The notes: generated by a model from the sequence alone, not told the origin. DNA of 64,000 nt from Candidatus Marinacidobacterales bacterium (GCA_965224085.1 CBDCYI010000011.1:64001-128000), one strand, 5' to 3'. Positions 10,040-60,665 are shown, counted from the stretch's first letter. Numbers and translations are program-made.

Positions 10040-10344
10040 GTCATCCTTTCGGAGGGCCAAGGGATGTCGTTGTGGTGGCTCTGAAATCCGTTGTCCACAT
10101 TGTATAACAAGCGTCCGAGCCGTGGCGGCATGCGAGCGCATGGCTTGGGATCAGACGTTCTCAAAGAAAACGGGACGCGTCGAGTGATCGCCTAAAGTTA
10201 TAAAAATAAGTACTTTAGTACAGGTTGGCTACAAAGCTGAGTCCGGGTGCCGTTCCGGGTCCCCAAGGTGCCGCTCCGCGTGGCTTGGCGACCGTTCTTG
10301 CCGGTAAAGCTCGCCTGGCTAGTATGGATCCATAAACTGTGCGC

Positions 10345-10806
10345 ATGCTGATCTGGGCGCAGACCAAACAAGGCGCGTGGAGTGCCACGCGCATACCCGG
10401 CGAAAACGGCCTTTCCATCGCCTCGAGCGTGTTCGTCCTGTGCTTAAAAGGCCACCATGCGTGCGGCATCTTCGTTCATGGTGACGCGGATGTCAACGGT
10501 TGTGCGGCGCTCCCGTTTCACGTTCTCGATCATCGAGACGAGATCCGCGTCGACGGTAACCTTTATTACATAAGCGCCGCGTCGGCGCCGGAGCCTTACC
10601 CCTTCGTGCCCGCCGACAAACCGATCCTCTGCGCGCGATGCGGCGACGAGCCCAAGGCGGCGGAACTTGTCGTGCGCTGTCCTCTCTGTGACGCGCTGCA
10701 TCACCACATCGAGTGTTTCGACTACGACCCCGAGTGCGGTGCGTGCAAGCGGGTGACGTCGTGGATGCCGGATTCCCTCGAGGAGAACGAGCGATGGCAT
10801 CACTGA
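10345..10806 (+). CDS. Degenerate FHA-like domain plus prokaryotic RING finger (putative E3-like protein)
   Basis: VNG...L.H.DEIRV (FHA C-terminal strands), then CARC-x12-CPLC..HHH..C-x6-CGAC; TAAACT 6 nt before the ATG. Confidence 0.65.
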   Translation: MLIWAQTKQGAWSATRIPGENGLSIASSVFVLCLKGHHACGIFVHGDADVNGCAALPFHVLDHRDEIRVDGNLYYISAASAPEPYPFVPADKPILCARCGDEPKAAELVVRCPLCDALHHHIECFDYDPECGACKRVTSWMPDSLEENERWHH

Positions 10807-11042
10807 TGGACGACCGCTACAGCCGTATCGCCGAGATGCCTTTGGTTGGGCCAGATGGGCTGGCCAAGCTCCAACGCTCTTCGGTGGCCATCGTGGGCGT
10901 CGGAAACGTGGGAGGTCAGCTCGGGCCGCATTTTTCGATGATGGGCTGCGGTCTCACGCTCGTGGACCGTGACGTCGTCGCCCGGGTAAACCTCGGAACG
11001 CAAGGCTTCTCTTCGAAGGAAGAAGGGATAGACTTCGTATGA
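10794..11042 (+). pseudogene. Truncated ThiF/E1-like adenylyltransferase (about 80 N-terminal aa)
   Basis: DRYSR..G..KLQRSSVAIVGVGNVG..LTLVDRDVV...NLGTQ, then an abrupt stop; GAGGAG RBS; overlaps the RING gene. Confidence 0.85.
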
Positions 11043-11045
11043 GCG

Positions 11046-12032
11046 ATGTCGAGTGCGGAAATTCGCCGCTCTGTGAGCCATCTGAGGCAGCTCCTTCGTT
11101 CCGGTGGCTTCGAGAAGGCGGCCGAACAAGCGGAGGAGGCGATGGCGCGATACCCGGATAGCGTCGAGCTCCTTGCCGTGTCCGCGGATATCCACCGGCG
11201 TGAGAAAAAGCTCGATGAGGCGAAAGCGCTTCTCGAGCGAGCGCGCGCCATCGAGCCCATGCACCCGGCCGTCCTCGCTTCTTCCGCAGATCTCGCCTAC
11301 GACCGCGGGCGGTTCGAAGATGCGGCCTCCCTCTACTTGGAGCTCGTTGACCGGCGCCCGAGCAGCTATCACTACTCGCGTCTCGTGGCGGCCAAGAATC
11401 GACTCGGCGCGCACGAAGAGGCGGCTGCGATTGCCCGGCGCGCGCTCGAGCGCTTCCCCGGCGATCCGTGGAACCTCCGCGGCCTCGCCACCGCCGAGAG
11501 CAAGCTCGGACGAAGGGAAGAAGCCGTCGCCGTTTACGAGGCGCTTCTATCCGTAGCGCCCGATGACCGCTTCGCTTACAAAGAGCTCATGCGCCTCAAG
11601 ACCGACGAGAGCTCTCCCGAAGAAGCGGCTTCCGCCCTAAAAGGGCTCATGCGGAGCGGTGGTCGCAGCCGAAATCCCCACCTCAGGACATTGGCCGCCG
11701 AGAGGCTACGCAAAGCGGGGAAGCTCGAAGACGCGGTCTCCGAGTACGAAGACGCTCTCGGCCTCGATCCAGGGAGCCCCTACATCCTGGCCCAGCTCGG
11801 CTTCACCCAAAAAAAACTCGGCCGCGAGCAAGACGCGATCGAAAGTCTCTCTAAAGCGTTCCTGGCAAAGCCTTCCGACCCCTACGTTCGCAAGAGCCTC
11901 GAGTCTCTCTTGAAAAAGCGCGGCGAGATCGCGCGTTTCGTCGAGCTCGTCGACGAAGCGCTGCGGCTTCATCCCTCGGTGAAGCTCCTTCACGGCATTC
12001 GCAAGCGCGTCGCCCGCCTTGCGAGCTCGTAA
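11046..12032 (+). CDS. All-TPR repeat protein
   Basis: Repeated A...YE.AL...P helical units across 328 aa; no signal peptide or catalytic motif seen. Confidence 0.9.
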   Translation: MSSAEIRRSVSHLRQLLRSGGFEKAAEQAEEAMARYPDSVELLAVSADIHRREKKLDEAKALLERARAIEPMHPAVLASSADLAYDRGRFEDAASLYLELVDRRPSSYHYSRLVAAKNRLGAHEEAAAIARRALERFPGDPWNLRGLATAESKLGRREEAVAVYEALLSVAPDDRFAYKELMRLKTDESSPEEAASALKGLMRSGGRSRNPHLRTLAAERLRKAGKLEDAVSEYEDALGLDPGSPYILAQLGFTQKKLGREQDAIESLSKAFLAKPSDPYVRKSLESLLKKRGEIARFVELVDEALRLHPSVKLLHGIRKRVARLASS

Positions 12033-12047
12033 GGTACACTCCTCGCG

Positions 12048-15000
12048 ATGGCAACAGTCCGCATCGGCGAGCTCGTGGAGCTTCCACGCGTTCGCACTGT
12101 CATCCAGCTCGTGGACGTATCGGACGAGGCACTAGCCCGGGGGATCCTCGACGACTTCGTTCTCACGGCCGATTGCGACTTCGCTCTGAGCGCGCTGCTC
12201 GACGCGATGACGCATGACGAAGGCCAGGGTTTTTTCCTGCAAGGAAATTTCGGCTCGGGCAAGTCCCATCTTCTCGCGCTCGTGGAACTCTTGTTTCGAC
12301 CCGCTGCCGAACCGGACATTAATAAAGAGGACGGGTGGGGAGCGCTCATCCGGCAAAGCCGCCGCTATGAAACGCTACGAAAGAAGCTCTCACCCCATGC
12401 CGGAGCGAGCGTGGTCGGAGCGGTCTCCCTCGTCGCGCACGCCGGCTCGGAAAGACTCGAAGACATCTCTATCGCGGCGCTCGAAAAGACGTTCGAGGGG
12501 CCACTCGGCCTCGCTCCGAGCTTCACCGCGGAGACCGCAGCAGTAGGAGAAATCAGGGCCGCTCTCGAGTCGCGACATCGGGACGCGCTCGAGAGTTTCC
12601 AGAACCGGCGCTCTGTGACCGCCGAGCGTTTGTTCGACGCCGGCCGACCCGATCTGCTCGACGATCTCGTGCGTGAGCTCGACCTTCCGTTCCGCGTCCG
12701 TCGCCAGCGAGGCGCGTTCTTCGATGCCCTCGAGGCGCAGCTCGGAAAAGGCAGCGCGCCGAAACGCGCCCTCCTCATCGTCGACGAGCTCTCGGAGTTT
12801 CTGCGCTCGAAGCCCGATGCCCGCGCGTTCAACGAGGACATCCGCTTTCTCCAGTTCCTCGGTGAAGCGAGCCGACGCATGCCCTTCTTCATCGTCGCTT
12901 CGCTCCAGGAGCACATAGAGACGACGGGCGAGATCGATCAGTCGACGTTCGGCAAGATCAAAGACCGCTTCCCTTCGCGTCTCGCTCTTACCGGAAGCCA
13001 TCTCCGCGAGATTGCAAGCACGCGTCTCATCCTGCAAAAGCCCGGTGCCGAAGCGCAGATCGCAGAGATCTATCGGAAATTCCGCATTGCTTTCAAAGGC
13101 CTCGCCGTATCCGAGGCTGATTTCACCGCACTCTACCCGGTCCACCCGGCGACGGTGGATCTTCTCGACGACTTGTTGCCGCTGTTCAGTCGGCATCGGG
13201 GGGCGGTAGACTTTCTCCACTATCAACTCGCTGGCGATCCTCAGCGACACATCGCCGGGCTATTAGACGCGCCAGCCGAGTCTCTTCTCGGGCCCGATGC
13301 GATCCTCGACCACTTCCGGATTCGCATCCAAGAGACACTCGAGACGAGCCCCTACATCACCGTAGTGCTTGCTTTCTACGAAAAGGAGCTCTCGCGTCTG
13401 TTCGCCGAGCCTGAAGATCGAGAGACGGCGCTCCGTCTCGTCAAGTTGCTCATCCTTCTCGCGATCTCTCCCATCCCCCGGCGCCGCACTGTCGCCGAGC
13501 TCGCCGAGATGCTTCTCAAGAGCATCACCACGCTCGAATCCGAAGCCAACTACGATCACGTTCACGATCTCCTTGAAAAGATGCACCTCGAGGGCGCCTA
13601 TCTATCCCGCACTGAGGGCGAGGACGGCAAAGACCCGTACGAGAATGTGTACTCCCTCGACCTCGCCGCCGACGTCCAGCTCATCATCCAGAGACGGATG
13701 GAAACCCTGCTGAAGGATCCAGGCTTCACCGTCTCTCGAGCCGTGGGGAAACTTCTCCCATATTTCAAGAGTCCCGAACTTCCGCTTGCGTCGCTGGCTA
13801 AGTCGCCGGTCACCGAGCGGCGCGTCTCGTGGCAAAAGACCTACCGCGAAGGAAACCTGCTGTTTTTCCGCGACGCAGACGACCCCCTACTCTCCGATGA
13901 GCGCCTCGATGAGCTGGTGGAGAAGCTCTGGACCACGGAGCTCGACTTCTGTGTCCTACTCATGGCTCCGGGTGGAGGGGTCGAGCCAGCGACGCTAGAC
14001 CGGTTCATCGGACGACTCGACGAGCGAGCGCCCGAGCCCTTCCTTGTCTGGGTGCCGGCGCCGCTCGAAAAAGGCAAGGAGAAGCCCGGCCAGCTCATTC
14101 GCCGGGCGGCGGCTCGGCTCGCCGTCCGGGAGCACTTTCATCAGGAAGGCTCGGACGTAGCGAAGCGTGTGCTAGCGGCCCTCGAACCTCTGATCCGGGA
14201 AGATCTCGAGCTCAGCGAGAGTGTCGTTCAAAAAACCTATCGAGGCGGGCGCTTCATGGCGCCGTCGGGGAGCCCTACGTTGACGCCGGCTGAGCTTCCA
14301 TCCATCGGCTTCGATCGCATCGTGACCCGCCTGGCAGAGTTTCCCCTCGTACGGCGTTTTCCCAACCACTACGACATCGCGCCCTCGCTCGAAGCCTCAG
14401 CGACCGACCTGCCCGCACCGATTCTCCGCGAGTTTTTCCGGGCCGGAGAGGTCGCGCGACAAAACACCTCCGAGATGCTTCGCACGACGCTCGAGTCCAG
14501 GCTGCGCGCGCTCGGACTCGTCCGCCGCACCGCGACCGGTTATCGCTTGCAACCCGACCCCTCGGAGAGCGACCTCGTGCGCCGCGTGCTTACGCGTGTC
14601 GGAGAAAAGCGCGTTGTTTTGGAAGTGCTGTACCAGGAGCTTCGAAAGGGCGCGTTCGGTCTAACGCGGCCGTCCTTCGAGCTCGTCGTGCAGGCATTGT
14701 TGTATTCGGGCCAGCTGACGGCCTACGCTTCGGGCCGAAAGCTTTCTCTCGACGCGCTCGAGACCCGCTCCGTGAGCCGCATCCAGGAGCTGGGCGCAGG
14801 CGAGATGCTCTCAGGCGAGCTGCAAGCCGTGCTGGCTGGACTTCCTTTCGTGCCGCCCCGGCTTCAACAGGGAGCGTTCGGCTTTGCGCAACAACGTGAG
14901 CTCTGGGACTGCGTTGTTCAATGGAAGTCGGAGCTCGAGCGCGGCGTCGCCGATTTGAAGGCGGAGCTCGAGCGGTCGCGTGCCTACCGCTCGGCGGCCC

Positions 15001-17423
15001 ACCTCGATCTCGACGCGCTGAACTCGCGCATCGAGCGGCTCGAATCGCTGGGCAAAGAAGTCAAAGTCTCCTACGCGGCAAGAGAAGGACTCGAGCGCTT
15101 CGCGCGCCGCGCTCGCGAAGAGCCCGACCTCACCCAGGATTTCGAAGCTTTGGTCGAGCTCTCGCGCTTTTTTCGAGAAGACTGGGAGCGCTATCTCTTC
15201 GTTCATCGCTACTTGAGTGATGCCGCGATGGAGCTTCCTGTGCAGGACGAAGAGCACAAAGAGCTCGGCGCGAGACGTCATCGCCTTCGGGAGCTTGCTT
15301 CCCGTCCCGATTTGCCCTTTCTCCCCGCGTTGACGCGACGGCTCAACGATGAAATGCAGGCTTTCGTTTCCACCTACAGCGCTGTGTACGAGAGGGCGCA
15401 CCGCACGCAAAAATCCCGCGAGCGGGTGAAGCGTCTTCTCTCGCTCCGGGACGAGAAGAGCTATCGCGTACTCCAACGGCTCGCTGCGCTCGAGCTGATC
15501 TCGGTCGACGATGATCGGGTGAAGGCGGACCGTCTTTTGGACGAAGCGCTGGCAAAAACTTGCGATAGGCTCTCTCCGGAGCTTCTGCGCGCGAAGCCCG
15601 CATGCGACTGCGGCTTTAGGCTAGGAGACGTGCTCGAGCTTCCCGCACCGTCCGAGGTTCAGACCGTCATCGATCGCGGCATCGTCCAGTACTTGGAAAG
15701 ACTACGGGAGCCGACCTATCTAGAGCCCATCGAGAGCGCACTCCACGGGCTATCGGAAGTGGGCAAAGACTCTCTTGTGTCTAAAATCCGCAAGCTCGTA
15801 GAGCTCGACCTCGAAGCGCCCGATCTTCTGAAGCGCGTCGACAAGCTCGCCGCGAGCGAGGTCATCGACGCGGTGAACGATGCGCTCGCGGGGCACGCAG
15901 TTCTCGTCGAGAGAAGCCTCGAGGATCTCGCCGAGCGCATTGCGGAAAGGAGCTTCCCCCGCAAGGCGCTCCTCGACATCGTGGCACGATGGATCGACGG
16001 TGACGCGGCGCTCGCATCGGAGGACTACATCAAAGTGGTTTCTCAAGGAAAAATCGCGGCAGAGCAAAGTGTGCTTGCGTCTTTCGTCCGCGAACGTTTC
16101 TCGGAGCTGTGGCCGTGGTGGGAGAAGCTTGGTGAGCGCAAAGCTTGCCGGCTCATGGTTCTGGCCTTTCGCGCTCCCGCTCCGGTTGAAGAGGTCGAGC
16201 CACGGATTGCGGAGCGTCTTCATGACGCCTTTGACGCGTTTACCAGCGAGGCTCCCGACGAGGTCTTGTCGGTTTTCGAGCGTGTCGAGAGCGAGCTGAC
16301 GGATGACGAGCGGCGCGCGATTCTCTCACACAATGACGGCGACGACGCGGAGACGCTCGCTCGTCTCGCTTATGGGGAAAAGTCGTTTCGCTTCGCGGTT
16401 AGGGATCGAGCGAGAAAGCTCATCCGCATGGTCCTTGCGGGCTCGCTAACGAGTGTACCGGCCGGCGCGCGTAGTTCGGATCCAGACCAAGACGTTCAGC
16501 GCGAACGGCTCGGCCTCGAGGCACTCACCCGAGCGCTCGAGTCGGGCGTGAGCCTCTACCGCGGGATACACTACGTGGACGGGCTAGAAAAATCCCCCGA
16601 CACCCCAGAGGGCTGGGAGACGCTCTACCGTGAGCACATGGCGCCGATGCCCGTGGCGCTCTGCCATCTGCAGGAATCACTCGACGAGCTCAAGCTCGCG
16701 GATGCGATTGACCTAAAAGGCCCGACCCGAAACGCACGTCGCCTTCTCGAAGCGCGGGCGTCCGACTTCGAGACTTTTTTTCTCGCTCAGGCCCCCGCCG
16801 AGGGTGCGAGAACACTCCGATACCTTTTCGAAGAGTTCGCCGAAAAATACCGAAGAAAGCTCGAGCCCGCCAGCGAGAGGTTTGTGTTCCTCGACGGCAT
16901 GCGCTGGGACGTGTGGAGTCATTTACGAGCCACGCTCCTGCCTCGACTCCGGGCCGTGTACCGCGTCGTCGACGAAATTCCGCTCTGGTCCATCCATCCC
17001 ACGACGACCCAAGCTCAGCTCGAGGCCGCCGGGATCGGCGTTCCCCAGCTCGAGCTCGTCGCGGAGTCCCAACCGAGCTACGGCCAAAAGGCGGAGACTT
17101 CGGTACTGCCCGGTTTCAAGCGTCTCCATGGACCGGGCGGTGAGCCGATCGAGCGACTGAATCTCGTGGACGACAAGATCCACGAGTCGTCGATGCCCCT
17201 CTCCGATGTACTCCGCGAGATCGAGCTTCACGCGCGAAGGACGCTCGGGACTTTGCTGGAAGAAGCGCCGCGGCGAACGCTCGTGTTTCTTTTCTCCGAT
17301 CACGGCTTTCGCGAAGATCCCCGCTGGAGCGAAACCTCCCGGCATCGAAAGCCTCGTTACCGGCACGGCGGCGCGAGCCTGTGGGAGGTCATCACCCCGC
17401 TCGTGATCCTGTCTCGAAGCTGA
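12048..17423 (+). CDS. DUF6079/BrxC(PglY)-like P-loop ATPase fused to a C-terminal PglZ-like alkaline-phosphatase-superfamily domain
   Basis: Walker A GNFGSGKSH (12243), Walker B LLIVDE (12777), FLQFLGE, KDRF, YPVHP, Cys cluster (15561-15611); C-terminal FLDGMRWD (16893), PTTT, DDKIH, SDHGF (17295), HGGASLWE (17364). Confidence 0.85.
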   Translation: MATVRIGELVELPRVRTVIQLVDVSDEALARGILDDFVLTADCDFALSALLDAMTHDEGQGFFLQGNFGSGKSHLLALVELLFRPAAEPDINKEDGWGALIRQSRRYETLRKKLSPHAGASVVGAVSLVAHAGSERLEDISIAALEKTFEGPLGLAPSFTAETAAVGEIRAALESRHRDALESFQNRRSVTAERLFDAGRPDLLDDLVRELDLPFRVRRQRGAFFDALEAQLGKGSAPKRALLIVDELSEFLRSKPDARAFNEDIRFLQFLGEASRRMPFFIVASLQEHIETTGEIDQSTFGKIKDRFPSRLALTGSHLREIASTRLILQKPGAEAQIAEIYRKFRIAFKGLAVSEADFTALYPVHPATVDLLDDLLPLFSRHRGAVDFLHYQLAGDPQRHIAGLLDAPAESLLGPDAILDHFRIRIQETLETSPYITVVLAFYEKELSRLFAEPEDRETALRLVKLLILLAISPIPRRRTVAELAEMLLKSITTLESEANYDHVHDLLEKMHLEGAYLSRTEGEDGKDPYENVYSLDLAADVQLIIQRRMETLLKDPGFTVSRAVGKLLPYFKSPELPLASLAKSPVTERRVSWQKTYREGNLLFFRDADDPLLSDERLDELVEKLWTTELDFCVLLMAPGGGVEPATLDRFIGRLDERAPEPFLVWVPAPLEKGKEKPGQLIRRAAARLAVREHFHQEGSDVAKRVLAALEPLIREDLELSESVVQKTYRGGRFMAPSGSPTLTPAELPSIGFDRIVTRLAEFPLVRRFPNHYDIAPSLEASATDLPAPILREFFRAGEVARQNTSEMLRTTLESRLRALGLVRRTATGYRLQPDPSESDLVRRVLTRVGEKRVVLEVLYQELRKGAFGLTRPSFELVVQALLYSGQLTAYASGRKLSLDALETRSVSRIQELGAGEMLSGELQAVLAGLPFVPPRLQQGAFGFAQQRELWDCVVQWKSELERGVADLKAELERSRAYRSAAHLDLDALNSRIERLESLGKEVKVSYAAREGLERFARRAREEPDLTQDFEALVELSRFFREDWERYLFVHRYLSDAAMELPVQDEEHKELGARRHRLRELASRPDLPFLPALTRRLNDEMQAFVSTYSAVYERAHRTQKSRERVKRLLSLRDEKSYRVLQRLAALELISVDDDRVKADRLLDEALAKTCDRLSPELLRAKPACDCGFRLGDVLELPAPSEVQTVIDRGIVQYLERLREPTYLEPIESALHGLSEVGKDSLVSKIRKLVELDLEAPDLLKRVDKLAASEVIDAVNDALAGHAVLVERSLEDLAERIAERSFPRKALLDIVARWIDGDAALASEDYIKVVSQGKIAAEQSVLASFVRERFSELWPWWEKLGERKACRLMVLAFRAPAPVEEVEPRIAERLHDAFDAFTSEAPDEVLSVFERVESELTDDERRAILSHNDGDDAETLARLAYGEKSFRFAVRDRARKLIRMVLAGSLTSVPAGARSSDPDQDVQRERLGLEALTRALESGVSLYRGIHYVDGLEKSPDTPEGWETLYREHMAPMPVALCHLQESLDELKLADAIDLKGPTRNARRLLEARASDFETFFLAQAPAEGARTLRYLFEEFAEKYRRKLEPASERFVFLDGMRWDVWSHLRATLLPRLRAVYRVVDEIPLWSIHPTTTQAQLEAAGIGVPQLELVAESQPSYGQKAETSVLPGFKRLHGPGGEPIERLNLVDDKIHESSMPLSDVLREIELHARRTLGTLLEEAPRRTLVFLFSDHGFREDPRWSETSRHRKPRYRHGGASLWEVITPLVILSRS

Positions 17424-17464
17424 TCGCGGGCGCCAACGCATCATCGAAGTCCACCGCTCACGGT

Positions 17465-17664
17465 CCCGGACGAAGATCCAACTCGGCCGGGTCTTGCTCC
17501 CGGCGAAGGAGCGAGTCTCGTCGGCCTGGAGCTCCTCGGCAATAAATCCTGCGATCCTTGCCTGGTTGAAGCGCCGGCACGCGTCGGCGGCCATCTCGAC
17601 CCAGCGGGCCACGGTGTTCCAGGCAATACCTTCGATACGACCGATCGCCGACACGAAGCACCAG
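17465..17664 (-). mobile_element. IS1-like transposase remnant
   Basis: VSAIGRIEGIAWNTVARW (HTH), then EELQADETRSFAGSKTRPSWIFV (first DDE aspartate region); truncated at both ends. Confidence 0.6.
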
Positions 17665-19185
17665 TTACTGTGCATCGAAAACGCCGGGTGGCGCTTGTGT
17701 TTCTCTAGGGGGCGGGTACGCCAAATGTTTTTCCATCTGAAACCAGGGAACCATCCACGGTTCTTCACGCCATGTGCTATCCAACAGGGCAACGTATTGG
17801 TCAACCAATCCGCGAACCCGTGCGTCATGGCTGATCATGTCGTGGACAGGATCGAGTGGACCGACAATTTTCGCATAGACCTGGCCCGCGGAATCTACAT
17901 GATTGAAAACAGCGAATACGGTTGCGCCCGTCGAAAAGGCTAGCTCAGCGAAACTCGTCCGGAACGGTCGCCAGCGACCGTGAAAATCGTATCGGATGCC
18001 GGAGCTTCGGCCATGATGGCCGTCACCGGCGATGGTGACGACACCCCCTCGTTGAAGCGTCCGTCTTGCGGTGTTCAGCTGATGAGAGAAAAGCGAGTTT
18101 TCTAGAGTGCTGCTGGAAAGCTCGAGCCGCTTTAGGTAGATGTGGACGCCACCTACGTTGTAGCTGCCGAGCTGCAAAAGGCTGGACCAAGATTGAGCAT
18201 TGTCGTGACAGCACACCAGGACCACGCCGCGTTCTTGATCGAGGAATCGTTGCAGCTGCTCCTTACCCTCGATCGAGAAGCGATTCGCATACTCCTGCCG
18301 CCGGGCCTCATCCCTTGGCACTCGGCCCCACGGTCCGATCCTATAGTGGAAGAGGCTACCGAACAACAAACAGTCGTGCATCAATCGATTCTCGTCCGCA
18401 TCGATGTCGAGCACACCGAGAAAGCGGCGGATCAGTCGAATGTAGTATCGAAACAACGCGTCTTGCATCGACGGGTATTCGAGGGCAGTGCTCAGGAGTC
18501 GGTACGCCACGGGATAGGGCAGGGCATTCGCCACCGCACTCGCCCACCTCCGACGCCCATGCCACCCCTGTGAGATCGTCGCCTTGGGATCCGCACCAAG
18601 ACGTGGCTGCTCGATACGCTCGTAGAGCGCGTCCAGCGCTTCCGTCTTTTCCGGCTGAACGGCGAAATCAGGATGGACTCGGGTACCCGTACCGTCGGCG
18701 TCGTGCGCATGATCTCCCTTGGACGACCGATCGGGGCTGAGCATGGCGGCCAGTTCCGCCACGCTCGGATTGCGAAAGAACGACTTGAGCGGGATATCCA
18801 CCCCGAACTTTCGTTCCAGTTGCGCGGCGAGGCGTAGGGTCAGCAAGGAATGTCCGCCCAACTCGAAGAAATTATCGTGCACCCCGACTTGCTCCACGTC
18901 CAGTATGTCGGCCCAGATAGCTGCCACTTCTGCCTCGACCTCTGTGCGTGGACCCACGTAGGCGTGCTCGAGATCGGGCCGGGTTGGCTCGGGGGCGGGC
19001 AATTTTCGCCGGTCGACCTTGCCGGTGGGCGTTAGCGCCAGGTGATCCAACTGCACGAAGACGATTGGGATCATATAGTCGGGCAGTTTCTGGCGGAGGA
19101 AACGGCCCAGGTCGCGGCTATCGATCTTGCGGTTCACCACCACGTAGGCCACCAACCGCCTGTCCTGTGGCGTATCTTCTCGAGC
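17665..19185 (-). pseudogene. 5'-truncated NRPS: A-domain C-terminus, PCP, and a lipid A/lysophospholipid acyltransferase-like terminal domain
   Basis: RLVAYVV, LPDYMIP, LTPTGKVDRRKLP, DNFFELGGHSLL (Ppant serine); then GVVLVCCH, GGVVTIAGDG, F.G, LAFSTGA.V, EEPW..W. Confidence 0.85.
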
Positions 19186-19251: not shown

Positions 19252-20057
19252 ATTGCTGTCAAATTGAGCTGGTGACTGACAGAATGGTCCAATGAAGACC
19301 GATGCGCCAAGCTACCACGGCTATCGATTTCCACCGGAAATCATCAGCCACGCCGTCTGGCTCTACCACCGATTCTGCGTGAGCTTTCGAAACGTCGAAG
19401 AGCTGCTTGCTCAGCGAGGCATCACGGTTTCCTACGAAGCGATCCGACTTTGGTGCATCAAGTTCGGGCCGGAATACGCTCGGCGACTGAAGCGTCGGCA
19501 GGGTCGCCTTGGTGACACGTGGCACCTGGACGAGGTCTTCATAAAGATACAAGGCGAACGCCAATACCTCTGGCGCGCGGTAGACCAAGATGGTGATGTG
19601 ATTGATATCCTCGTCCAGCCTCGCCGTGATCAGAAAGCCGCCAAACGATTCTTCCGCAAGCTGTTGAAAGGGCAAGGCCGTCCGCCCTGGCAGCTGGTCA
19701 CCGACAAACTGAGAAGCTACAGTGCCGCTCACCGCGAGGTCATGCCGTCCGTCGTCCACGACACTGACCAGTACAGAAACAACCTAGCCGAAGTCTCGCA
19801 CGAACCGACGCGACAACGGGAACGACAGATGCGGAAGTCTAAAGCTCCTGGGCAGGCGCAACGATTCTTGACCGTGCATGGACTCGTGCAAAACCTCTTT
19901 CGCGTCGGACGGCATTTGTTGCAAGCGCATCATCATCGGGAGCTACGAGACCGCGCTTTCATCGTCTGGCAGGAGGTAACCTGTGCCGTCCGATGAGAGC
20001 AAAGGAAGTCAGCTCGACGCAATAGGTTCGCTCGCTCAACGTCAACTTGACAATACC
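19252..20057 (+). mobile_element. IS6-family insertion sequence
   Basis: Transposase bounded by imperfect IRs (..TGTCAAATTGA at 19257; TCAACTTGACAATACC ending at 20057). Confidence 0.85.
19292..19996 (+). CDS. IS6-family DDE transposase
   Basis: YRFPPEII..AVWLY.RF..S.R.VEELLA.RG, WHLDEVF, YLWRAVD, VTDKLRSY, NN.AE.SH. Confidence 0.95.
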   Translation: MKTDAPSYHGYRFPPEIISHAVWLYHRFCVSFRNVEELLAQRGITVSYEAIRLWCIKFGPEYARRLKRRQGRLGDTWHLDEVFIKIQGERQYLWRAVDQDGDVIDILVQPRRDQKAAKRFFRKLLKGQGRPPWQLVTDKLRSYSAAHREVMPSVVHDTDQYRNNLAEVSHEPTRQRERQMRKSKAPGQAQRFLTVHGLVQNLFRVGRHLLQAHHHRELRDRAFIVWQEVTCAVR

Positions 20058-35330: not shown

Positions 35331-38246
35331 TCAGTCAAGCTTTCGCTCGACTTCGCGGATGCGCTCGCGATCCATCTCGCCGTCTTTCCAAAATTCGAAG
35401 AAGCGTTCGTAGGCGTCCAGAGCGTCTTCTTCGTAGCCCCTTTCCTCGCGAAGCTTGCCGAGGAAATAAAAACTCCGAACGTAGCGAGTCGGCTCGAAGA
35501 TACGTTCTTCGGTCGAGTTGACGATGCGCTCGTACCACATCGTCGCTTCTCCGATATTGCCGGCCTCGCGATGAGCGTTGGCGATCGCATACCAGATGAC
35601 GGTGTGGAGACCTTCGACGCCGCGCGGAGGCAACATCGATTCCGCTTCGTTCAAATGGGCGATCGCCGACGCGAAGTCACCGAGCGCGAGCGCGAGCTCG
35701 CCTTCGAGAAGTTGGCGCATGCGTTCGCGTCCGGGCCCAAACGTTGGTTTCACCCGTTCGCGGAAGGCTTCCGCGAGCTCGCGCGCCCGCGTCTCGTCAC
35801 CCAGACGTGCCGAGGCGACGGCGGCGATGAAACGACTCTGTGGGCCCGAGTCGTACCGGTCGTCTGGCCCTTCGATCGTGAGCGCAGCCTCTCGCGCGCC
35901 TTCGTTGTCGCCGACGTCGAGCAGAACCCTCGCTTTGTACAACGTAGGCTGGTTTTTGAAACGTCCTTCTCCGGCCGCGATCAACGCGTCAATACCGTTG
36001 ATCACGGGCGTATAGCACCCTTTGTAGAGCTCGGTGATCGCGACGAGACGGCCACCGTAGAACTTCTCAATCATCTCTTCCGCCTCGAGCATGCTGGCAG
36101 CGATCTTTGCGGCGTCGTCCCACTCTTCTTCGAGAATATGCGCTTCCCAGAGGACGGGAGCCGTGCGGAATTTGCTCGCGCCCAACTCTTCGGCGCGCTC
36201 GAGCTCATTGAGACCACGTTCGATCTCGCCGCTCTCGATCGATAGCTGAGCTATCGAGACCAGTGTCATCCAGTCATCTGGGTTGCGTTCGTTGAACTCC
36301 TCGAGAACCGCTCGGGCGCGGGCATCATCGCCGCGCGCCTGGTAGGCCCTCGCGAGGTTCTCGTAGGTGGCGGGAAAGACCATGCCGCGGCTTTCGAGCT
36401 CTTCGAACTGCTCGATGGCCGCGTCGTAATCTTCGAGGTCGACGAGCAAGTTTCCGAGGTTGTGTCGTGCCGATCCGTGGTCGGGATAGAGCTTAATCGC
36501 CATGCGATAGGCTTCAAGCGCTCGATCGAGAGTTTCGGGATTTCGGGAGTAGTGCCAACCTTCGATGTAGTGTCGCTCCCTAGCGGAGAGCCGCTCGATA
36601 TGCTGGAGGGCGGCTACCGCAAATTCATCGGCTTCTTCCTGCCGGCCGAGGTTGTTATGGACGACGCCCAACTTCGCGAGGGCCATCGCGAATCCCGGGT
36701 CGAGCTCCACTGCGCGCCTGAAGTGCGGCAGAGCCTCCTCTTCGCGATAGCGTTCGTGTAGACGGATGCCTTCGGCGTAATGTCGATAGGCTTCGACGGA
36801 AGCGGTCGTCACGTCGCGCAGGTCACGGTCGAGCTCGCCTTCGAGCGCGACGACGGAGAAGTTGGCTTTGATGCGGCCGCTAATCTCGTCGACTAGATGA
36901 AAGACGCTCTCCTCACCCGTCCCTTCGGCCTTCTCCGAGAGCAAGACCCTGCCAGTATGCGCGTCTTCGAGGCGCGCCGAGATGCGGATCGAATCGCCTG
37001 CTTTCGCGAAGCTTCCACGAAGAACAGTATTCACGGAAGCGCGCCGCGCGAGCTCTTCGATGGCCTCCGAAGGCGTGGGTCCGCCGTGAATGCGGCCCAT
37101 CTCGTCGAGAATCTGATAGAGGCGGTCGGTGCCAAGAACCTCGAGCTCGGGCGATTGCGAGAGATCCGTCACCAGCATGTCGGTGAGTCCCATCCGCAGC
37201 CACTCGAGCTCTGGATCGCCGGACAGATTCTCGAAATGCAACACTGCGAGCGATGGCGTCTCGCTCGTTGGCGTAGGGTCGGGTGGCGTCAGGAGTAAGG
37301 CCATGATGGCGGCTACCGCAAAGACGCTTATTCCCGCCGCAACGGCGAGGCGTTTCAAGCGCGTCGCCTTCCCGCCGGAAGCGAGGCGCAGTCGCGCGAG
37401 CTTCAAATCCGCGAGCACCTCAGACATGTGCTGGTAGCGTTTGTCCGGCTCTTTTTCGAGACATCGGTCGATGATTGGTTGGAGAACCTGCCGCTCTTCC
37501 CCGTTCAAGCCCGGGATCTTCGGAGTCGGGTCGCGCAGGATGGCGTAGAGCGTGTCGATGCGGCTTTTGCCTTCGAACGGTGGCTGTCCGCCCAGCACGT
37601 GGAAGAGCAACAAGCCGAAGCTGAAGATGTCGCTTCGCGGGTCGACTTTCCCCCCGCGCGCCTGCTCAGGCGACATGTACGACACCGTCCCTTCGATGAC
37701 GCTCTCGCCCGTGACGCTCTTCTGGGCCGATTCGTCGGGGCGTGTCTCGCTGAGAAACGGATTTTTGTCCGCGTCGACGAGCCTCGCTAAACCGAAATCG
37801 ATCAGCTTCGGGTGGCCTTCGCTCGTCAGCATGACGTTCGCGGGTTTGACGTCACGATGCACGATGCCATGTGCATGCGCGTAGGTGAGCCCATGAGCGA
37901 CGCCACTTGCGAGCTCCAATCCTTCGCGCGGCGGGAGCCGCTCCGGCGATTTCAAGCGATCGGCTAGGCTTTTCCCGCGGAGAAGCTCCATGGCGATGAA
38001 GATAACGTCATCCGATTCGTCGATCTCGTGGATGACAGCGATGTGAGGGTGCTCGAGCGCCGCGGCTGCGGTGGCCTCCTGCACGAAGCGTTGGCGTCGG
38101 TCACTCTCCTTCACGAGTTCCGGCGGCAGGACTTTTAGCGCGACCTCGCGGAGAAGCTTTTCGTCGCGGGCGCGGTAGACGGTCTGGAGCTCGCCTCGAG
38201 TGATCTCCTCGAGGACCGTGTAATGTGAGAGCTTCTTGCCAATCAT
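35331..38246 (-). CDS. Hanks-type Ser/Thr kinase, TM, TolB-N-like domain and TPR repeats
   Basis: VALK, HRDVKPAN, DFGLA, GTVSYMSPEQ, SDIFS; SLAVLHFENLSGD; TPRs. Confidence 0.93.
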   Translation of the reverse strand: MIGKKLSHYTVLEEITRGELQTVYRARDEKLLREVALKVLPPELVKESDRRQRFVQEATAAAALEHPHIAVIHEIDESDDVIFIAMELLRGKSLADRLKSPERLPPREGLELASGVAHGLTYAHAHGIVHRDVKPANVMLTSEGHPKLIDFGLARLVDADKNPFLSETRPDESAQKSVTGESVIEGTVSYMSPEQARGGKVDPRSDIFSFGLLLFHVLGGQPPFEGKSRIDTLYAILRDPTPKIPGLNGEERQVLQPIIDRCLEKEPDKRYQHMSEVLADLKLARLRLASGGKATRLKRLAVAAGISVFAVAAIMALLLTPPDPTPTSETPSLAVLHFENLSGDPELEWLRMGLTDMLVTDLSQSPELEVLGTDRLYQILDEMGRIHGGPTPSEAIEELARRASVNTVLRGSFAKAGDSIRISARLEDAHTGRVLLSEKAEGTGEESVFHLVDEISGRIKANFSVVALEGELDRDLRDVTTASVEAYRHYAEGIRLHERYREEEALPHFRRAVELDPGFAMALAKLGVVHNNLGRQEEADEFAVAALQHIERLSARERHYIEGWHYSRNPETLDRALEAYRMAIKLYPDHGSARHNLGNLLVDLEDYDAAIEQFEELESRGMVFPATYENLARAYQARGDDARARAVLEEFNERNPDDWMTLVSIAQLSIESGEIERGLNELERAEELGASKFRTAPVLWEAHILEEEWDDAAKIAASMLEAEEMIEKFYGGRLVAITELYKGCYTPVINGIDALIAAGEGRFKNQPTLYKARVLLDVGDNEGAREAALTIEGPDDRYDSGPQSRFIAAVASARLGDETRARELAEAFRERVKPTFGPGRERMRQLLEGELALALGDFASAIAHLNEAESMLPPRGVEGLHTVIWYAIANAHREAGNIGEATMWYERIVNSTEERIFEPTRYVRSFYFLGKLREERGYEEDALDAYERFFEFWKDGEMDRERIREVERKLD

Positions 38247-44779: not shown

Positions 44780-45868
44780 TTGCCTTGGTGCACAACTCCG
44801 ATAGAGGCCGAGAGCTCGCTTGGCCCCGACTCCCATCATCCGATCATCTCGCTATCAGGCATCCCGAGCGCCGTCATGGTGTTGAGAATCTTGCACCCGA
44901 TCCTTGCCTCGACTCTCTGTGCCGCCAACCCTCTCGCTCGCATCGCTGAGCCCACGATAGCCTTGTAGCGATGGAACGTTGTCTCGACTTTGCTCCGTTT
45001 GCTGTAGCCCGATTCTGTGTGCCACTTTCGTTTGCCGAGCCGAGCTTGTGCTGCAATGTTGCGATTGCGCTGTCGGCTGCTCGCCGGCCCCGATGCGAGC
45101 AGGGCGCCCTTGCGCGGCGGTATCAGCACCCTCGGCGAGCGATGAGCGCTGTGATTCTCGATTGCCTCATAGACGCCGCTGGCGTCGTATGCGGTGTCAG
45201 CTCTGGCCGATGAGATGGGACTGTCGCTCTGTCTGACAAGCGATGCAACCCGCGATGAATCGCGGGCTCTTTTGCTCGTCAGCTCGCAGGCGACGACTTC
45301 GCCAGTCTGCTCGTCGACACACAGATGGAGCTTGCGATAGTCCCTGCTATTTGGTGCTCTGCGCAGCTGGCCGGCGTGGACAGCGAGACCGCTGCTGTCG
45401 ATCAAGATGTGCAACGGCGTCTTCTGCTTGTCTTGGTAGAAGGGGACCTTACCCAGCTTCGCCTTGCGCCTCGAGATCGTGGTGTGATCGGGCACATCAT
45501 TGTCTAGCTTCATCAGAGCGAACAACGATCGCAGCAATCCCTCGCTCTGTCTAGATGACAGATGAAACACCATGCCCAGGGTGACAGCCGTCTCGATGGC
45601 GTGGTTCGAGTACTTGCGTTGACGGCCCGGTTTCCTCCTCCTTGGCCGGGGCGCGTCCCAGTTCACAAGCTTGCCGGCGGTGAGCGAGATCCAGACGGTC
45701 AGGCTCCCGCGGTTGCGTAGACCCGCCTCATATTCACGCCAATTCCTCACGCGATAGGCCTTCTTCACATACTTCCGCTGAGTGCGTTTGAAAATGCTCA
45801 TGGGGAACCTCGAATCCGTGAGTAAAGGACAATTGTGGACCGAGATCGCGAGTTGTGCACCAAGGCAA
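44780..45868 (-). mobile_element. IS5-family (IS903 group) element
   Basis: Perfect 19-bp IR TTGCCTTGGTGCACAACTC (44780-44798 and 45850-45868); no target duplication. Confidence 0.9.
44836..45801 (-). CDS. IS5/IS903-group transposase
   Basis: YRVRNWREYEAGLRNRGSLTVW, PDHTTISRR, IDSSG, RKLHL, ADTAYD, GYSKRSKVET. Confidence 0.93.
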   Translation of the reverse strand: MSIFKRTQRKYVKKAYRVRNWREYEAGLRNRGSLTVWISLTAGKLVNWDAPRPRRRKPGRQRKYSNHAIETAVTLGMVFHLSSRQSEGLLRSLFALMKLDNDVPDHTTISRRKAKLGKVPFYQDKQKTPLHILIDSSGLAVHAGQLRRAPNSRDYRKLHLCVDEQTGEVVACELTSKRARDSSRVASLVRQSDSPISSARADTAYDASGVYEAIENHSAHRSPRVLIPPRKGALLASGPASSRQRNRNIAAQARLGKRKWHTESGYSKRSKVETTFHRYKAIVGSAMRARGLAAQRVEARIGCKILNTMTALGMPDSEMIG

Positions 45869-45951
45869 ATAAACGTCACCGTGTCTGAGGTCTTTGGCCC
45901 CGTGAATAGCACCTTTTCCAGGTTCTGCATACACCGTGCAGAATCACCTAT

Positions 45952-46048
45952 GTGGCGGCGAGCGGGTGCCCCAGCACGAGCTTCTCGCCTGCGCCCAGTG
46001 CGGCTGTTTCGCGTTTTCGTGCTTCGAAGATTTTGCGATTAGGGTTAA
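45952..46048 (-). repeat. 97-bp dispersed repeat, copy 2
   Basis: Reverse complement of 3993-4089. Confidence 0.9.
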
Positions 46049-46170
46049 CTTAATCGATATAAGCAACAGCTATGCCAGTGGTCAATGCGAAAAAATTATC
46101 GGGCAAGCGCTTGCCCAAAACGGTCGTCGGAATGAGGTAATAATTTCCACCAAAGTCCATTATCCTACTA
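46045..46170 (+). pseudogene. Aldo/keto reductase internal remnant
   Basis: NLIDISNSYASGQCEKIIGQAL..RRNEVIISTKV. Confidence 0.7.
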
Positions 46171-46194
46171 AGATCGTACGCTTAAGGGATAGAT

Positions 46195-48378
46195 ATGCAG
46201 AAACTCAGGAGTTGGTCTAGTGAATATTCACATATATTGCTGATCAGCATTTTTATTCTTTTTACTGAACTGTTTCTGATCCGCTGGATCTCAACTGAAA
46301 TAAGAATTTTTGCCTACGTTAACAATCTCGTACTATTGGCCTGTTTTGTGGGACTGGGATTGGGTTCCTTGTTGGACAAAAGGTTTGGAAACCTGCTTTG
46401 TTCGGTTATCTCCATTTTTCTGCTGGCTCTGGCAAGCACGTCAAACCACTTTCTCAACATAACAGAACAGATCGGTAGCTTTTCGGATCAGCTGATTTGG
46501 TACCTGGACGATCAACCCATCAATTGGATCCAGCCTGTGCGTGGAATACTTTCAACATTGCTGCTTTTTGCATTTATCGTTGCTGTGTTCATACCTCCGG
46601 GGCAGATTCTGGCCCGACTCCTTTCAAGTGCAAAAAATATTACACTCGGATATTCAGTCAATATCTTTGGAAGTATTGTGGGTATCTGGCTGTTTTCAAC
46701 GATTTCCTTTTTGTTCCTGCCACCGGCAGTCTGGCTGGCACTTTCCCTGATATTGTCCTGGAAGTTTATCCAACCCATCAAGTGGGAACGGACTGTGTTT
46801 TTCTGCTCCTCTTTGATTACTGTTTTTTTATTGCTGCCCCATACTTCTTCACTTCAGATCTGGTCTCCTTATCAAAAGCTGGATATGCAGCCCGCACAGA
46901 TCAGAAATACAAATATTACTAACGGATATATTATTAATGTTAACAATGTCGGATACCAGAAACTGATTGATTTATCGGATCGATTTTTTGAAAAGTATGC
47001 AACTCCAGAAATCAATTCTGTAAAACATCTTAACCAGTATGAGCTTCCTTATCTGATCAAAGGGGACGTAAAAGATGCCTTGATTGTGGGAGCAGGTGCC
47101 GGCAATGGTCCTGCAGGTGCCATTCGTCAGGGAGTGGAAAGAATTGACGCAGTGGAGATTGACCCCGGCATATACGAACTGGGAACCCGCTATCACCCGG
47201 AAAGTCCCTACGATAGTGAACGAGTTAGAGTTCACATCGACGATGCAAGATCCTTTTTCAAGAAAAGCAGGCAAAAGTATGACGTGGTAAGTTTTGGACT
47301 TCTCGATGCACATTCCACCGCTTCCAGTTTTAACAACATCCGACTTGATCATTATGTCTACACGGAGGAAAGCATTCAGGATGCAAGAAAACTGCTGAAA
47401 CCCGACGGGATCTTAACCTTGATTTTTGCCCCTCATGGGAGGGGGTGGCTGATCGGCCGGCTTCATAACATCATCGAGAAGGTTTTTGGGCACTCTCCCC
47501 TGGTGTTTGAGGTCCCAACGGTTCCCTATTCGGGTTGGGGCGGGAGCATGTTTGTTGTAAGCAATGATGGCACAGACCCCAGGCTCCTGATTGAAAAAAG
47601 GCCTGACGTTAAGAGTTACATCTCACCTAAAATCTTCTCTGCTAAGCAAGAAAGTGACATAAGAAACGCTACTGATGACTGGCCTTATTTGTATCTGGTG
47701 AAAAACAGAATTCCTAAAATGCACCTATTGATCACTTTTTGCCTTCTGATCTTACTGGTGCCAACCAGGAAAATTCTCACAATCACCAAAAAATCCTTTG
47801 ATTTTCATTTTTTCTTTTTGGGAGCAGGGTTCTTGCTTTTGGAGTTCCAGAACATAAGCAAAGCCTCATTGTTTTTTGGTTCCACTTGGCTGGTGAATGC
47901 CTATATGTTTAGTGCCATCTTAGGTTTAATTTTGCTTGCCAATTGGGCCAGTTATTTGGGATTGAGCAAACATATTGGAATAGTTTACTGCCTTCAGTGG
48001 ATTTGTATACTCGCGCTCTTTCTGCTTCCTCTCGATACTTTTAGAGGTATGGGGCACCTTTTTAATGCGACCGTGCTTTCAACCCTGTTAAATATACCCG
48101 TTTTTTTTGCGGGGCTTATATTTATGCACTCTTTTGTCAGAGTGAAGGATAAGCCGCTCGCGCTAGGTTCCAATCTTCTGGGAGCTTGTGTTGGTGGATT
48201 GCTTGAATCGGCTTCTTTTGTGGTGGGAATCAAGGCTCTGTTGCTATTTGTACTGGCCTTTTATGTTCTCGCTTATTTCAGTTTTAATAGATCAGGACTT
48301 GCCCGGGCCCCGGTGCGTCAAGCCTCAATTTTCCTGTCAAATCTCTGCATGGTTCCCCGAACTCGGTTAGGCTGCTGA
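46195..48378 (+). CDS. Polytopic membrane protein with a central spermidine-synthase-like SAM-binding domain; low GC
   Basis: N- and C-terminal TM bundles; WSPYQK, LIVGAGAGN, AVEID, DDARSF, KYDVV, ATDDWPYLY. Confidence 0.82.
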   Translation: MQKLRSWSSEYSHILLISIFILFTELFLIRWISTEIRIFAYVNNLVLLACFVGLGLGSLLDKRFGNLLCSVISIFLLALASTSNHFLNITEQIGSFSDQLIWYLDDQPINWIQPVRGILSTLLLFAFIVAVFIPPGQILARLLSSAKNITLGYSVNIFGSIVGIWLFSTISFLFLPPAVWLALSLILSWKFIQPIKWERTVFFCSSLITVFLLLPHTSSLQIWSPYQKLDMQPAQIRNTNITNGYIINVNNVGYQKLIDLSDRFFEKYATPEINSVKHLNQYELPYLIKGDVKDALIVGAGAGNGPAGAIRQGVERIDAVEIDPGIYELGTRYHPESPYDSERVRVHIDDARSFFKKSRQKYDVVSFGLLDAHSTASSFNNIRLDHYVYTEESIQDARKLLKPDGILTLIFAPHGRGWLIGRLHNIIEKVFGHSPLVFEVPTVPYSGWGGSMFVVSNDGTDPRLLIEKRPDVKSYISPKIFSAKQESDIRNATDDWPYLYLVKNRIPKMHLLITFCLLILLVPTRKILTITKKSFDFHFFFLGAGFLLLEFQNISKASLFFGSTWLVNAYMFSAILGLILLANWASYLGLSKHIGIVYCLQWICILALFLLPLDTFRGMGHLFNATVLSTLLNIPVFFAGLIFMHSFVRVKDKPLALGSNLLGACVGGLLESASFVVGIKALLLFVLAFYVLAYFSFNRSGLARAPVRQASIFLSNLCMVPRTRLGC

Positions 48379-60660: not shown

Positions 60661-60665
60661 CTTAG

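Follow-up and report, generated by a model that had tools for sequence, protein, structure and literature searches.

An undescribed BREX-derived variant: a conserved pair of a TPR protein and a BrxC-PglZ fusion from Candidatus Marinacidobacterales

What may a BrxC-type ATPase do when it is fused to a PglZ-type phosphoesterase, encoded next to a tetratricopeptide repeat (TPR) protein, and found without the linked DNA-modifying enzyme of bacteriophage exclusion (BREX) systems? This question is raised by positions 11046 to 17423 of a stretch of 64,000 nucleotides from Candidatus Marinacidobacterales bacterium (GCA_965224085.1 CBDCYI010000011.1:64001-128000; one strand, 5' to 3'), the whole of which is called the window below. 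A preliminary description, made from the sequence of the window alone, had listed the two genes located there as a candidate defence system. According to the analysis presented here, the TPR gene and the BrxC-PglZ fusion gene form a conserved, self-contained two-gene module that is rare, patchy and distributed across phyla.

The two genes and their products

The module comprises the following features:

11046..12032, plus strand: TPR partner gene (328 aa, ATG start, TAA ending at 12032, 19 helices)
11589..11666, plus strand: TPR residues 182-207, central helix pair (H175-185 and H191-204), predicted contact with the fusion protein in the complex model
12033..12047, plus strand: spacer of 15 bases between the TPR and fusion genes
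12048..17423, plus strand: BrxC-PglZ fusion gene (1791 aa, ATG start)
12243..12269, plus strand: Walker A motif GNFGSGKSH, residues 66-74, aligned with the BrxC P-loop in 9zn5 and 9zll
12783..12788, plus strand: Walker B motif, D246 and E247, invariant in 20 fusion proteins and located in the stretch aligned to BrxC 249-371
13407..13568, plus strand: fusion residues 454-507, after the AAA+ core, predicted TPR docking site in the complex model
16038..16871, plus strand: helical linker, residues ~1331-1608, the least conserved part in the conservation profile and helical in the model
16872..17420, plus strand: compact PglZ / alkaline-phosphatase-fold domain, residues ~1609-1791, assigned by profile, invariant residues and fold

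Both open reading frames (ORFs) are free of internal stops, and their coordinates, ATG codons and open frames agree with the earlier description of two co-oriented, apparently intact genes 15 bp apart, encoding 328 and 1791 aa. The 328-aa protein, previously described as all-TPR, indeed consists of TPR over its entire length: it matches 28 TPR-type Pfam families (top match TPR_19, 8.4e-29), and its AlphaFold2 model displays 19 helices (mean predicted local distance difference test (pLDDT) 95.6). TPR-S, the sole sensor-type TPR family of Pfam matched by this protein, is found at 24.6 bits, under the cut-off of 27.6, and PADLOC-DB v2 holds no model for the TPR partner. TPR orthologues are full-length and collinear in 24 other loci and have the non-generic motifs P-x-D-x-F-A-Y-K-E, P-E-E and N-x-H-L..L-L-A in common. 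In 14 other loci, a same-strand TPR ORF overlaps the start of the fusion ORF by at least 3 bases (ORFs as printed). Scanning positions 10100-18000 for promoters and terminators gave counts at shuffle level, with no promoter-like site at 11024..11045, and the 21 sequencing runs listed as containing the sequence include no RNA run.

Residues ~1-1330 of the 1791-aa protein are BrxC-like. The full-length BrxC profile of Pfam, DUF6079 (PF19557), matches at 1.4e-40 with 139 bits (gathering cut-off 23) over profile positions 2-88, 168-322 and 739-1204, and ten PADLOC BrxC models match as well (best: PDLC02482, 8e-31). A profile built from an alignment of 20 full-length fusion homologues, the 20 fusion proteins for which conservation is given throughout, matches the solved BrxC chains 9zn5, 9zll and 9zdx. 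Within Walker A, residues G66, G69, G71, K72, S73 and H74 are invariant among these proteins. E247 of Walker B may be the equivalent of E269 of BrxC-Aci, as judged from the alignment and from the work on type 1 BREX (PMC13326643).

The C-terminus is, by profile and model, a PglZ-type metal phosphoesterase of predicted activity. The profile of the fusion homologues matches the PglZ domains of PorX in 8ted (8e-12), 8p6f and 7pv7 (range 8e-12 to 4e-9), and the alignment spans the motifs 'lDGlRwD..W', 'lPT.T' and 'Y.HGG.S.eE.i.P'. D1616, T1654, D1708, H1712, D1751, H1752 and H1773 are invariant among the homologues and correspond to a complete alkaline-phosphatase-type metal and nucleophile set, in which T1654 aligns with the threonine of the PorX motif P-x-x-T-Q, numbered T271 in the null-mutant entry 8thp. 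In the model computed for residues 1190-1791 (mean pLDDT 83.8), the helical linker is followed by an alpha/beta domain. Foldseek with this model returns PorX first (1e-7), followed by the Acinetobacter BREX PglZ 9zn5_B (4e-6), both with probability 1.00, and on the next ranks the Salmonella PglZ 9nv3_C (0.019) and other enzymes of the alkaline phosphatase superfamily. With ~180 residues, the domain is devoid of the N-terminal and C-terminal extras of BREX PglZ. These matches, together with those of DUF6079, the PADLOC models and the BrxC chains, bear out the earlier assignment of the gene as a BrxC-PglZ fusion.

A model of the complex was computed in one job from fusion residues 1-620, with the alignment of the 20 homologues, and the TPR protein, with an alignment of its own. 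The interface score ipSAE (interaction prediction score from aligned errors) is 0.68, 0.68 and 0.67 compared to 0.00 for the best control, with a partner pLDDT of 88 and at least 97% of the contacts common to the runs. In calibration, 58 of 80 solved complexes attained this mark, as did 2 of 110 mismatched pairs; these counts are only roughly valid here because own alignments were used. In this model, the central helix pair of the TPR protein is predicted to dock on a clade-specific motif beside the ATPase core. Predicted interface residues are 182, 185-186, 197-198, 200-201 and 203-207 on the TPR side, where the hydrophobic pattern and the P-E-E motif are conserved, and 454, 457, 493-497, 500-501, 503-504 and 506-507 on the fusion side, where N501 is found in 20, Y502 in 18, L496 in 17 and T494 in 16 of the 20 fusion proteins. 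The motif T-x-L-D-P-x-x-N-Y of this segment is present in the TPR-linked rows of the alignment, and also in one relative lacking both PglZ and a nearby TPR gene (L031); it is absent from 18 canonical and outgroup BrxC rows, with unrelated sequence in its place in canonical BrxC. No similar solved complex was found in the structure searches made.

Conservation, spread and surroundings of the module

A word-indexed search with the fusion protein scored 8000 candidates, of which 190 proteins reached E <= 0.001. Of the 120 matches listed, most are 1650-1870 aa long and align over the full length with 27-36% identity; they belong to Bacillota, Eremiobacterota, Myxococcota and others, and include homologues from Moorella, a cultured carrier. 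With a profile of the 600 C-terminal residues, clusters formed at 50% identity number 1334 at E <= 1e-3, 637 at 1e-10 and 183 at 1e-30, and in most full-length matches the C-terminal module ends a protein of 1600-1850 aa. The family is spread over hundreds of 50%-identity clusters and more than 10 phyla. The module is present in 7 of 401 sampled genomes of the phylum, own genome counted.

Gene neighbourhoods were compared in a set of 80 loci, kept from one genome per species, and in four close relatives: fusion-type loci are L001-L033 together with these relatives (37), and loci with a canonical unfused BrxC (~1240 aa) are L034-L080 (47). A hidden Markov model (HMM) built from 12 TPR orthologues and applied at E <= 1e-18 detects a TPR orthologue in 33 of the 35 fusion-type loci with upstream DNA (the misses are L014 and L031; L010 and L016 are without upstream DNA) and in 0 of the 47 canonical loci. 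According to the printed coordinates, 27 of these 33 loci have the TPR gene directly adjoining or overlapping the fusion gene, on one strand or the other, and five of the 27 display divergent transcription (L007, L017, L021, L024, L033). The remaining six TPR genes are located 0.4-7 kb from the fusion, and the farthest, in L022, may be an unrelated TPR gene. All-versus-all clustering of the ORFs of the 37 loci gave two conserved families only, the fusion (37 loci) and the TPR gene (32 loci), besides shadow ORFs, generic ATP-binding cassette (ABC) ATPases and an SNF2 helicase in 3 loci; no third gene conserved across the 37 loci was found by this clustering.

Some loci deviate in architecture. 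L017, L021, L024 and L033, with divergent TPR genes, encode shorter collinear fusions (~1400-1440 aa) with a smaller ATPase insert and a shorter linker, and in L007 the contig ends within the fusion ORF, after 1530 aa. Relatives of the same clade in L006 (7907-11953) and L031 (9980-14020) measure ~1350 aa and end before the PglZ domain, with no separate PglZ ORF found nearby; L006 has a TPR gene, L031 has none. A helicase adjoins the module in 5 of the 37 loci in varied arrangements, of SNF2 type in L007, L009 and L027 and of RecQ type in L011 and L029. A few toxin-antitoxin genes are found among the neighbours by Pfam.

In 18 fusion loci, the 130 neighbouring ORFs of at least 90 aa located within 6 kb gave 0 matches to DNA-modification methyltransferase families at E <= 1e-5; among them, the word 'methyltransferase' is found only in the names of a dimethylamine methyltransferase and of a protein for O6-methylguanine repair. 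As a control, 26 of 29 canonical loci with at least 17 kb of DNA were scanned (three were dropped), using downstream ORFs of at least 450 aa. A PF01555 methyltransferase of ~900 aa was found in 18 of these 26, usually with SNF2 helicase, PglZ and Schlafen-, SIR2- or OLD-type extras; hence, the scan detects PglXI where it is present. The nearest unfused BrxC relatives recovered are located in such type-3-like BREX operons. In nine of these loci (L038, L046, L050, L051, L053, L054, L058, L064, L067), an ORF with Schlafen/AlbA_2, HATPase_c_4 and Fic-like_C domains directly follows brxC, and the presence of a Schlafen/AlbA_2 ORF in this position of type-3-like operons agrees with a published survey. 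BrxA, BrxB, BrxF and BrxL gave no PADLOC match among 131 ORFs neighbouring the fusion genes.

A quick IQ-TREE phylogeny of 65 rows, computed from the N-terminal 620 residues with support by the Shimodaira-Hasegawa-like approximate likelihood ratio test (SH-aLRT) only, places 29 canonical BrxC rows in one clade (SH-aLRT 99, branch length 2.12), with all TPR-linked rows on the other side. The unlabelled rows on the TPR side are L016, for which upstream DNA is missing, and L031, and a long branch of its own holds two actinobacterial rows. The rows of Acidobacteriota are split over three distinct subclades, beside Dormibacterota, Actinomycetota or Gammaproteobacteria, which indicates transfer between phyla. 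Pairwise identities of the TPR protein and of the fusion N-terminus correlate over 25 loci with r 0.93, a value attained in 0 of 2000 permutations (r 0.74 for distant pairs), indicating that TPR and fusion genes travelled together.

Among close relatives, the genus has full-length orthologues of the fusion in 2 of its 4 other genomes, and the family in 4 of 18; the overall tally of 9 of 61 genomes includes weak canonical-BrxC matches (one of them in G027, a genome used in no conclusion). The TPR gene adjoins the fusion in all four carriers, with identities of 64-92% for TPR and 59-91% for the fusion on amino acid level. The flanking genes vary, and 32 ORFs around the module in these four relatives include no methyltransferase. 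Purifying selection acts on both genes: the ratios of non-synonymous to synonymous substitution rates (dN/dS) compared to the four relatives are 0.13-0.20 (TPR gene) and 0.12-0.23 (fusion). The block common with the same-genus genomes G001 and G003 starts at 11028 (G001) and 11024 (G003) and ends at 17426/17470, and homology with the module-less genome G002 stops at 11023. With these tight borders, the pair behaves like a single, separate unit within a variable region next to floA-nfeD. The left border is given by:

11024..11045, plus strand: left edge of the block common to module-carrying same-genus genomes, as the start of homology in G001/G003

These observations are in line with several expectations of the preliminary description: an adjacent TPR gene is conserved (33 of 35 loci), homologues are located outside BREX-3 operons with pglX (0 of 18 fusion loci, compared to 18 of 26 canonical ones), an ATPase closest to BrxC of type-3-like BREX operons supports the proposed derivation from BREX, and presence in 2 of 4 genus and 4 of 18 family genomes marks the locus as accessory, not fixed core.

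The window was scanned with Pfam (43 other ORFs) and PADLOC (65 ORFs of at least 150 aa). These scans display housekeeping and metabolic genes and several transposases, and no PglX or other DNA methyltransferase, PAPS (3'-phosphoadenosine 5'-phosphosulfate) reductase, BrxA/B/F/L or helicase, as had been noted before. Within the own genome (95% complete), the fusion gene is the sole DUF6079 locus, and neither PglZ (PF08665) nor BrxB (PF08747) is matched; the Pfam search for BrxA had no match in any control genome and is hence uninformative. Next to the module, the following ORFs are found:

10713-11042: truncated ThiF/E1 ORF of 109 aa directly upstream of the module, matching profile positions 1-65 of 238
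19292-19996: IS6/IS240-type transposase ORF downstream of the module (DDE_Tnp_IS240, 2.6e-36)

The truncated E1 reported upstream is thus real, while the element reported downstream as an IS1 remnant is of IS6/IS240 type, with a convergent acyl-carrier/acyltransferase gene between it and the fusion gene. In the area of the ThiF/E1 fragment (10339-11042), segment 10624-11023 is inverted compared to G003 and collinear with G002, and ~4 kb of G003 between this fragment and the TPR gene are missing from the window. Farther away, an island of low guanine and cytosine content at 44836-48378 (0.43 versus ~0.61 elsewhere) looks like a recent insertion and contains an ORF of 727 aa with a spermine/spermidine-synthase-like domain beside a DDE transposase. 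A Ser/Thr kinase of 971 aa with a long TPR array (35331-38246, minus strand) matches PADLOC PD-T4-6 kinase models at 2e-80, probably via its generic kinase domain. Two adjoining DDE_Tnp_1 transposase-like ORFs of ~600 aa each are located at 58776-62603.

Comparison with described systems

Avs/STAND (signal transduction ATPases with numerous domains) defence proteins combine a TPR array, a nucleoside triphosphatase (NTPase) and a nuclease-type effector, and in this the module may resemble them. However, the TPR protein of the module is separate and slowly evolving, and its NTPase is an ORC/Cdc6-like BrxC, not STAND.

In type 1 BREX, BrxC binds DNA and multimerises under the control of ATP, and BrxB bridges the AAA+ (ATPases associated with diverse cellular activities) domain of BrxC to PglZ, according to PMC13326643; PglZ is reported as a metal-dependent nuclease that nicks and cuts DNA (PMC12205998). 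Compared to the BrxC:BrxB:PglZ core of type 1 (9zll, 9zdx, 9zn5), the module has the same BrxC-type AAA+ ATPase with Walker A, Walker B and the K-I-K-D-R region, the same PglZ-fold phosphoesterase, and BrxC and PglZ as one physical unit. In contrast to this core, the module joins both in one polypeptide, PglZ is cut to a catalytic domain of ~180 aa, BrxB, BrxA, PglX and BrxL were not found in the window (BrxB also not genome-wide), and the sole partner is a TPR protein unknown in BREX. Among the features of BREX types 1-6, the module has the ATPase and PglZ, whereas a linked modifying enzyme and accessories of BrxB/BrxA type were not found.

BREX type 3 comprises BrxC/DUF6079, the N6_N4 methyltransferase PglXI, the SNF2 helicase BrxHII and PglZ. 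The nearest unfused BrxC relatives of the module show this layout, and an SNF2 helicase adjoins the module in 3 of 37 loci; yet, the ATPase clade is distinct, and PglXI is found in 0 of 18 fusion loci versus 18 of 26 canonical loci. Retention of BrxHII in module loci was considered and rejected, as the SNF2 neighbour in L009 and BrxHII in L037 display generic helicase-core similarity only.

PorX (7pv7, 8ted, 8p6f) is the best match of the C-terminus, with the same metal and nucleophile motifs and a compact PglZ domain preceded by helices. Unlike PorX, the fusion has no detected receiver domain (no Response_reg match at E <= 1), and its PglZ domain is joined to a 1300-aa DNA-type AAA+ protein instead of belonging to a two-component module.

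The main text of a broad BREX survey (preprint and PMC12839542) describes further contexts in which a BrxC-like ATPase and/or PglZ occurs outside canonical BREX, as in the module. These are BR systems, with DUF499 ATPases, methyltransferase and helicase, and a HerA/FtsK-centred system of seven components (STAND, DUF4007, HerA, GNAT, TGT, PglZ, DUF6079). BrxC and PglZ occur jointly in type 3 BR systems and in the HerA-centred seven-gene system of this survey, and neither matches the layout of the module. In contrast to BR types 1-3, its ATPase is DUF6079 and not DUF499, there is no methyltransferase, and an SNF2 helicase is found in only 3 of 37 loci; none of the other components of the HerA system accompanies it. 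The terms 'TPR', 'tetratricopeptide' and 'BrxC-PglZ' do not occur in the main text of the survey, the supplementary tables of which may list the architecture, and literature text searches covering article texts without supplements found no description of TPR paired with BrxC-PglZ. Hence, we regard the module as an undescribed BREX-derived variant.

Possible roles of the module and their meaning

We hypothesize that this BREX-derived module restricts incoming phage or plasmid DNA independently of modification, by ATP-gated cleavage through PglZ and with the TPR protein as obligate regulator or adaptor, and we consider this proposition to be evenly balanced. The second gene joins an ORC/Cdc6-like BrxC-type AAA+ ATPase covalently to a minimal PglZ metal-dependent phosphoesterase, and such a fusion would make a BrxB bridge unnecessary. 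The TPR protein would bind, via its central helix pair, the clade-specific motif just past the ATPase core, where BREX regulators act, and may be an obligate regulator or adaptor of ATPase assembly. Since methyltransferase, BrxA, BrxB and BrxL are missing, target discrimination could not use a cognate epigenetic mark, and the resulting ATP-gated DNA-binding machine with its tethered phosphoesterase would restrict foreign phage or plasmid DNA. A defence role, DNA as the substrate and the mode in which the module is triggered are what we infer in this proposal. Its stricter form, a minimal methylation-independent BREX in which TPR gates the assembly of BrxC on DNA and the tethered PglZ cuts foreign DNA without any self-mark, is more tentative and falls somewhat short of an even chance.

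Several observations weigh against restriction of foreign DNA by a BREX-type machine. The neighbours of the module are mostly metabolic and housekeeping genes, with no defence-island setting. PADLOC on the 131 neighbour ORFs (E <= 1e-8) gave generic domains only, namely SNF2, RecQ, group II intron reverse transcriptase, TnpB and ABC ATPases, along with a minimal nucleotidyltransferase (L029, PDC-S09) and one chemotaxis receptor (JetC model). With tblastn, neither a collection of 72,556 plasmids (searched at E 1e-10) nor one of 50,697 phages (searched at E 1e-5) gave a match; both are poor in the uncultured lineages bearing the family. Within the genus, the module is located near the same floA-nfeD anchor and diverges (91% aa) like its neighbours (86-95%), so that its recent history looks vertical, and the TPR gene displays no sign of diversifying selection in dN/dS compared to the four relatives. 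The NCBIfam equivalog-level model for BrxC (NF033441) scores 90.1 bits and does not reach its curated cut-off of 400. The Pfam PglZ family (PF08665) has no match at E <= 0.001 genome-wide and none at E <= 1 on the fusion, with precomputed matches in 11 of the 120 homologues listed; the assignment of PglZ therefore rests on profile and fold evidence. By both sequence and fold, the domain is nearer to PorX than to BREX PglZ. As PorX is a phosphodiesterase of small oligonucleotides (PMC12839542, main text), DNA is not the sole candidate substrate. Finally, the TPR contact is a prediction for fusion residues 1-620 only. The lack of defence islands, of plasmid and phage copies and of diversifying selection, the vertical look and the PorX-like PglZ keep our estimate for a defence role at about one half.

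The preliminary description had regarded the module as a defence system in which TPR senses phage proteins and licenses PglZ. None of the results of this analysis supports the module as a defence system. The same holds for the proposed role as sensor: the TPR gene evolves at the same constrained rate as the fusion, and the complex model places TPR as a fixed partner of the ATPase. A function in regulation or as an adaptor would agree with this no less than one in sensing.

Much of the above is in line with a cellular role outside defence, which we deem the most serious alternative to restriction but nevertheless unlikely. The module may then be a machine for DNA maintenance or repair, in which a DNA-binding ring driven by ATP bears the tethered phosphoesterase, or a regulated hydrolase of oligonucleotide or cyclic-nucleotide signals like PorX, with TPR tethering the module to a host partner. 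Mostly housekeeping neighbours with no enrichment in defence genes, zero plasmid or phage copies in the collections searched, the stable position at floA-nfeD with neighbour-like divergence, low dN/dS that is equal in TPR and fusion, a PglZ domain nearest to PorX, and RecQ or SNF2 helicases adjoining 5 of 37 loci all speak for it. Against a cellular function speak the very sparse and patchy presence of the module (7 of 401 phylum genomes, 4 of 18 family genomes), a gene tree that conflicts with the host phyla, and flanks that differ among related hosts; in addition, the characterised relatives of both domains in such a pairing are all defence proteins according to PMC13326643 and PMC12839542.

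Restriction by the module may also depend on a mark after all, if an unlinked host methyltransferase or another DNA modification provided the self-mark in trans and the module restricted unmarked DNA. DNA methyltransferases are matched in the own genome outside the contig of the module: C9 and C5 carry PF02384 and PF07669, and C4 a small PF01555 ORF. In BREX, moreover, BrxC and PglZ act jointly with PglX (PMC13326643). Yet, these methyltransferases are unlinked to the module, the PF01555 ORF has 238 aa and is not PglXI-sized, and in 18 diverse loci and 4 relatives the module is not accompanied by any methyltransferase despite its moves across phyla. A restriction module that is transferred without its cognate mark would be toxic, which weighs further against marking in trans, and we regard this explanation as improbable. 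That the locus is the decayed remnant of a full BREX operon, its partners perhaps lost through rearranged flanks as the preliminary description had cautioned, is hardly credible and was rejected in spite of the ThiF fragment upstream, the inversion compared to G003 and the IS6-type ORF downstream, since the partner-free two-gene layout recurs in 33 of 35 loci and many phyla, both genes are intact and under purifying selection, a long and supported branch (SH-aLRT 99, length 2.12) lies between the fusion clade and canonical BrxC, and tight block edges, located within ~25 bases of the gene pair in three genomes, and the lack of a third conserved gene in 37 loci indicate that lost partners do not explain the layout.

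Known BREX systems require four to eight proteins, and to our knowledge the mechanism by which BREX stops phages is still unresolved. If the module does restrict incoming DNA independently of modification, a two-gene version with ATPase and PglZ in one chain, plus TPR, would isolate the restriction half of BREX from the methylation half. It would be the simplest natural BREX restriction engine and a direct route to the joint action of BrxC and PglZ, for which the analysis singles out residues K72, E247, N501, T1654 and D1751/H1752. The module also raises the question of how self may be distinguished from non-self without a mark. Should its function lie outside defence, BrxC and PglZ would here be seen paired for a cellular task for the first time.

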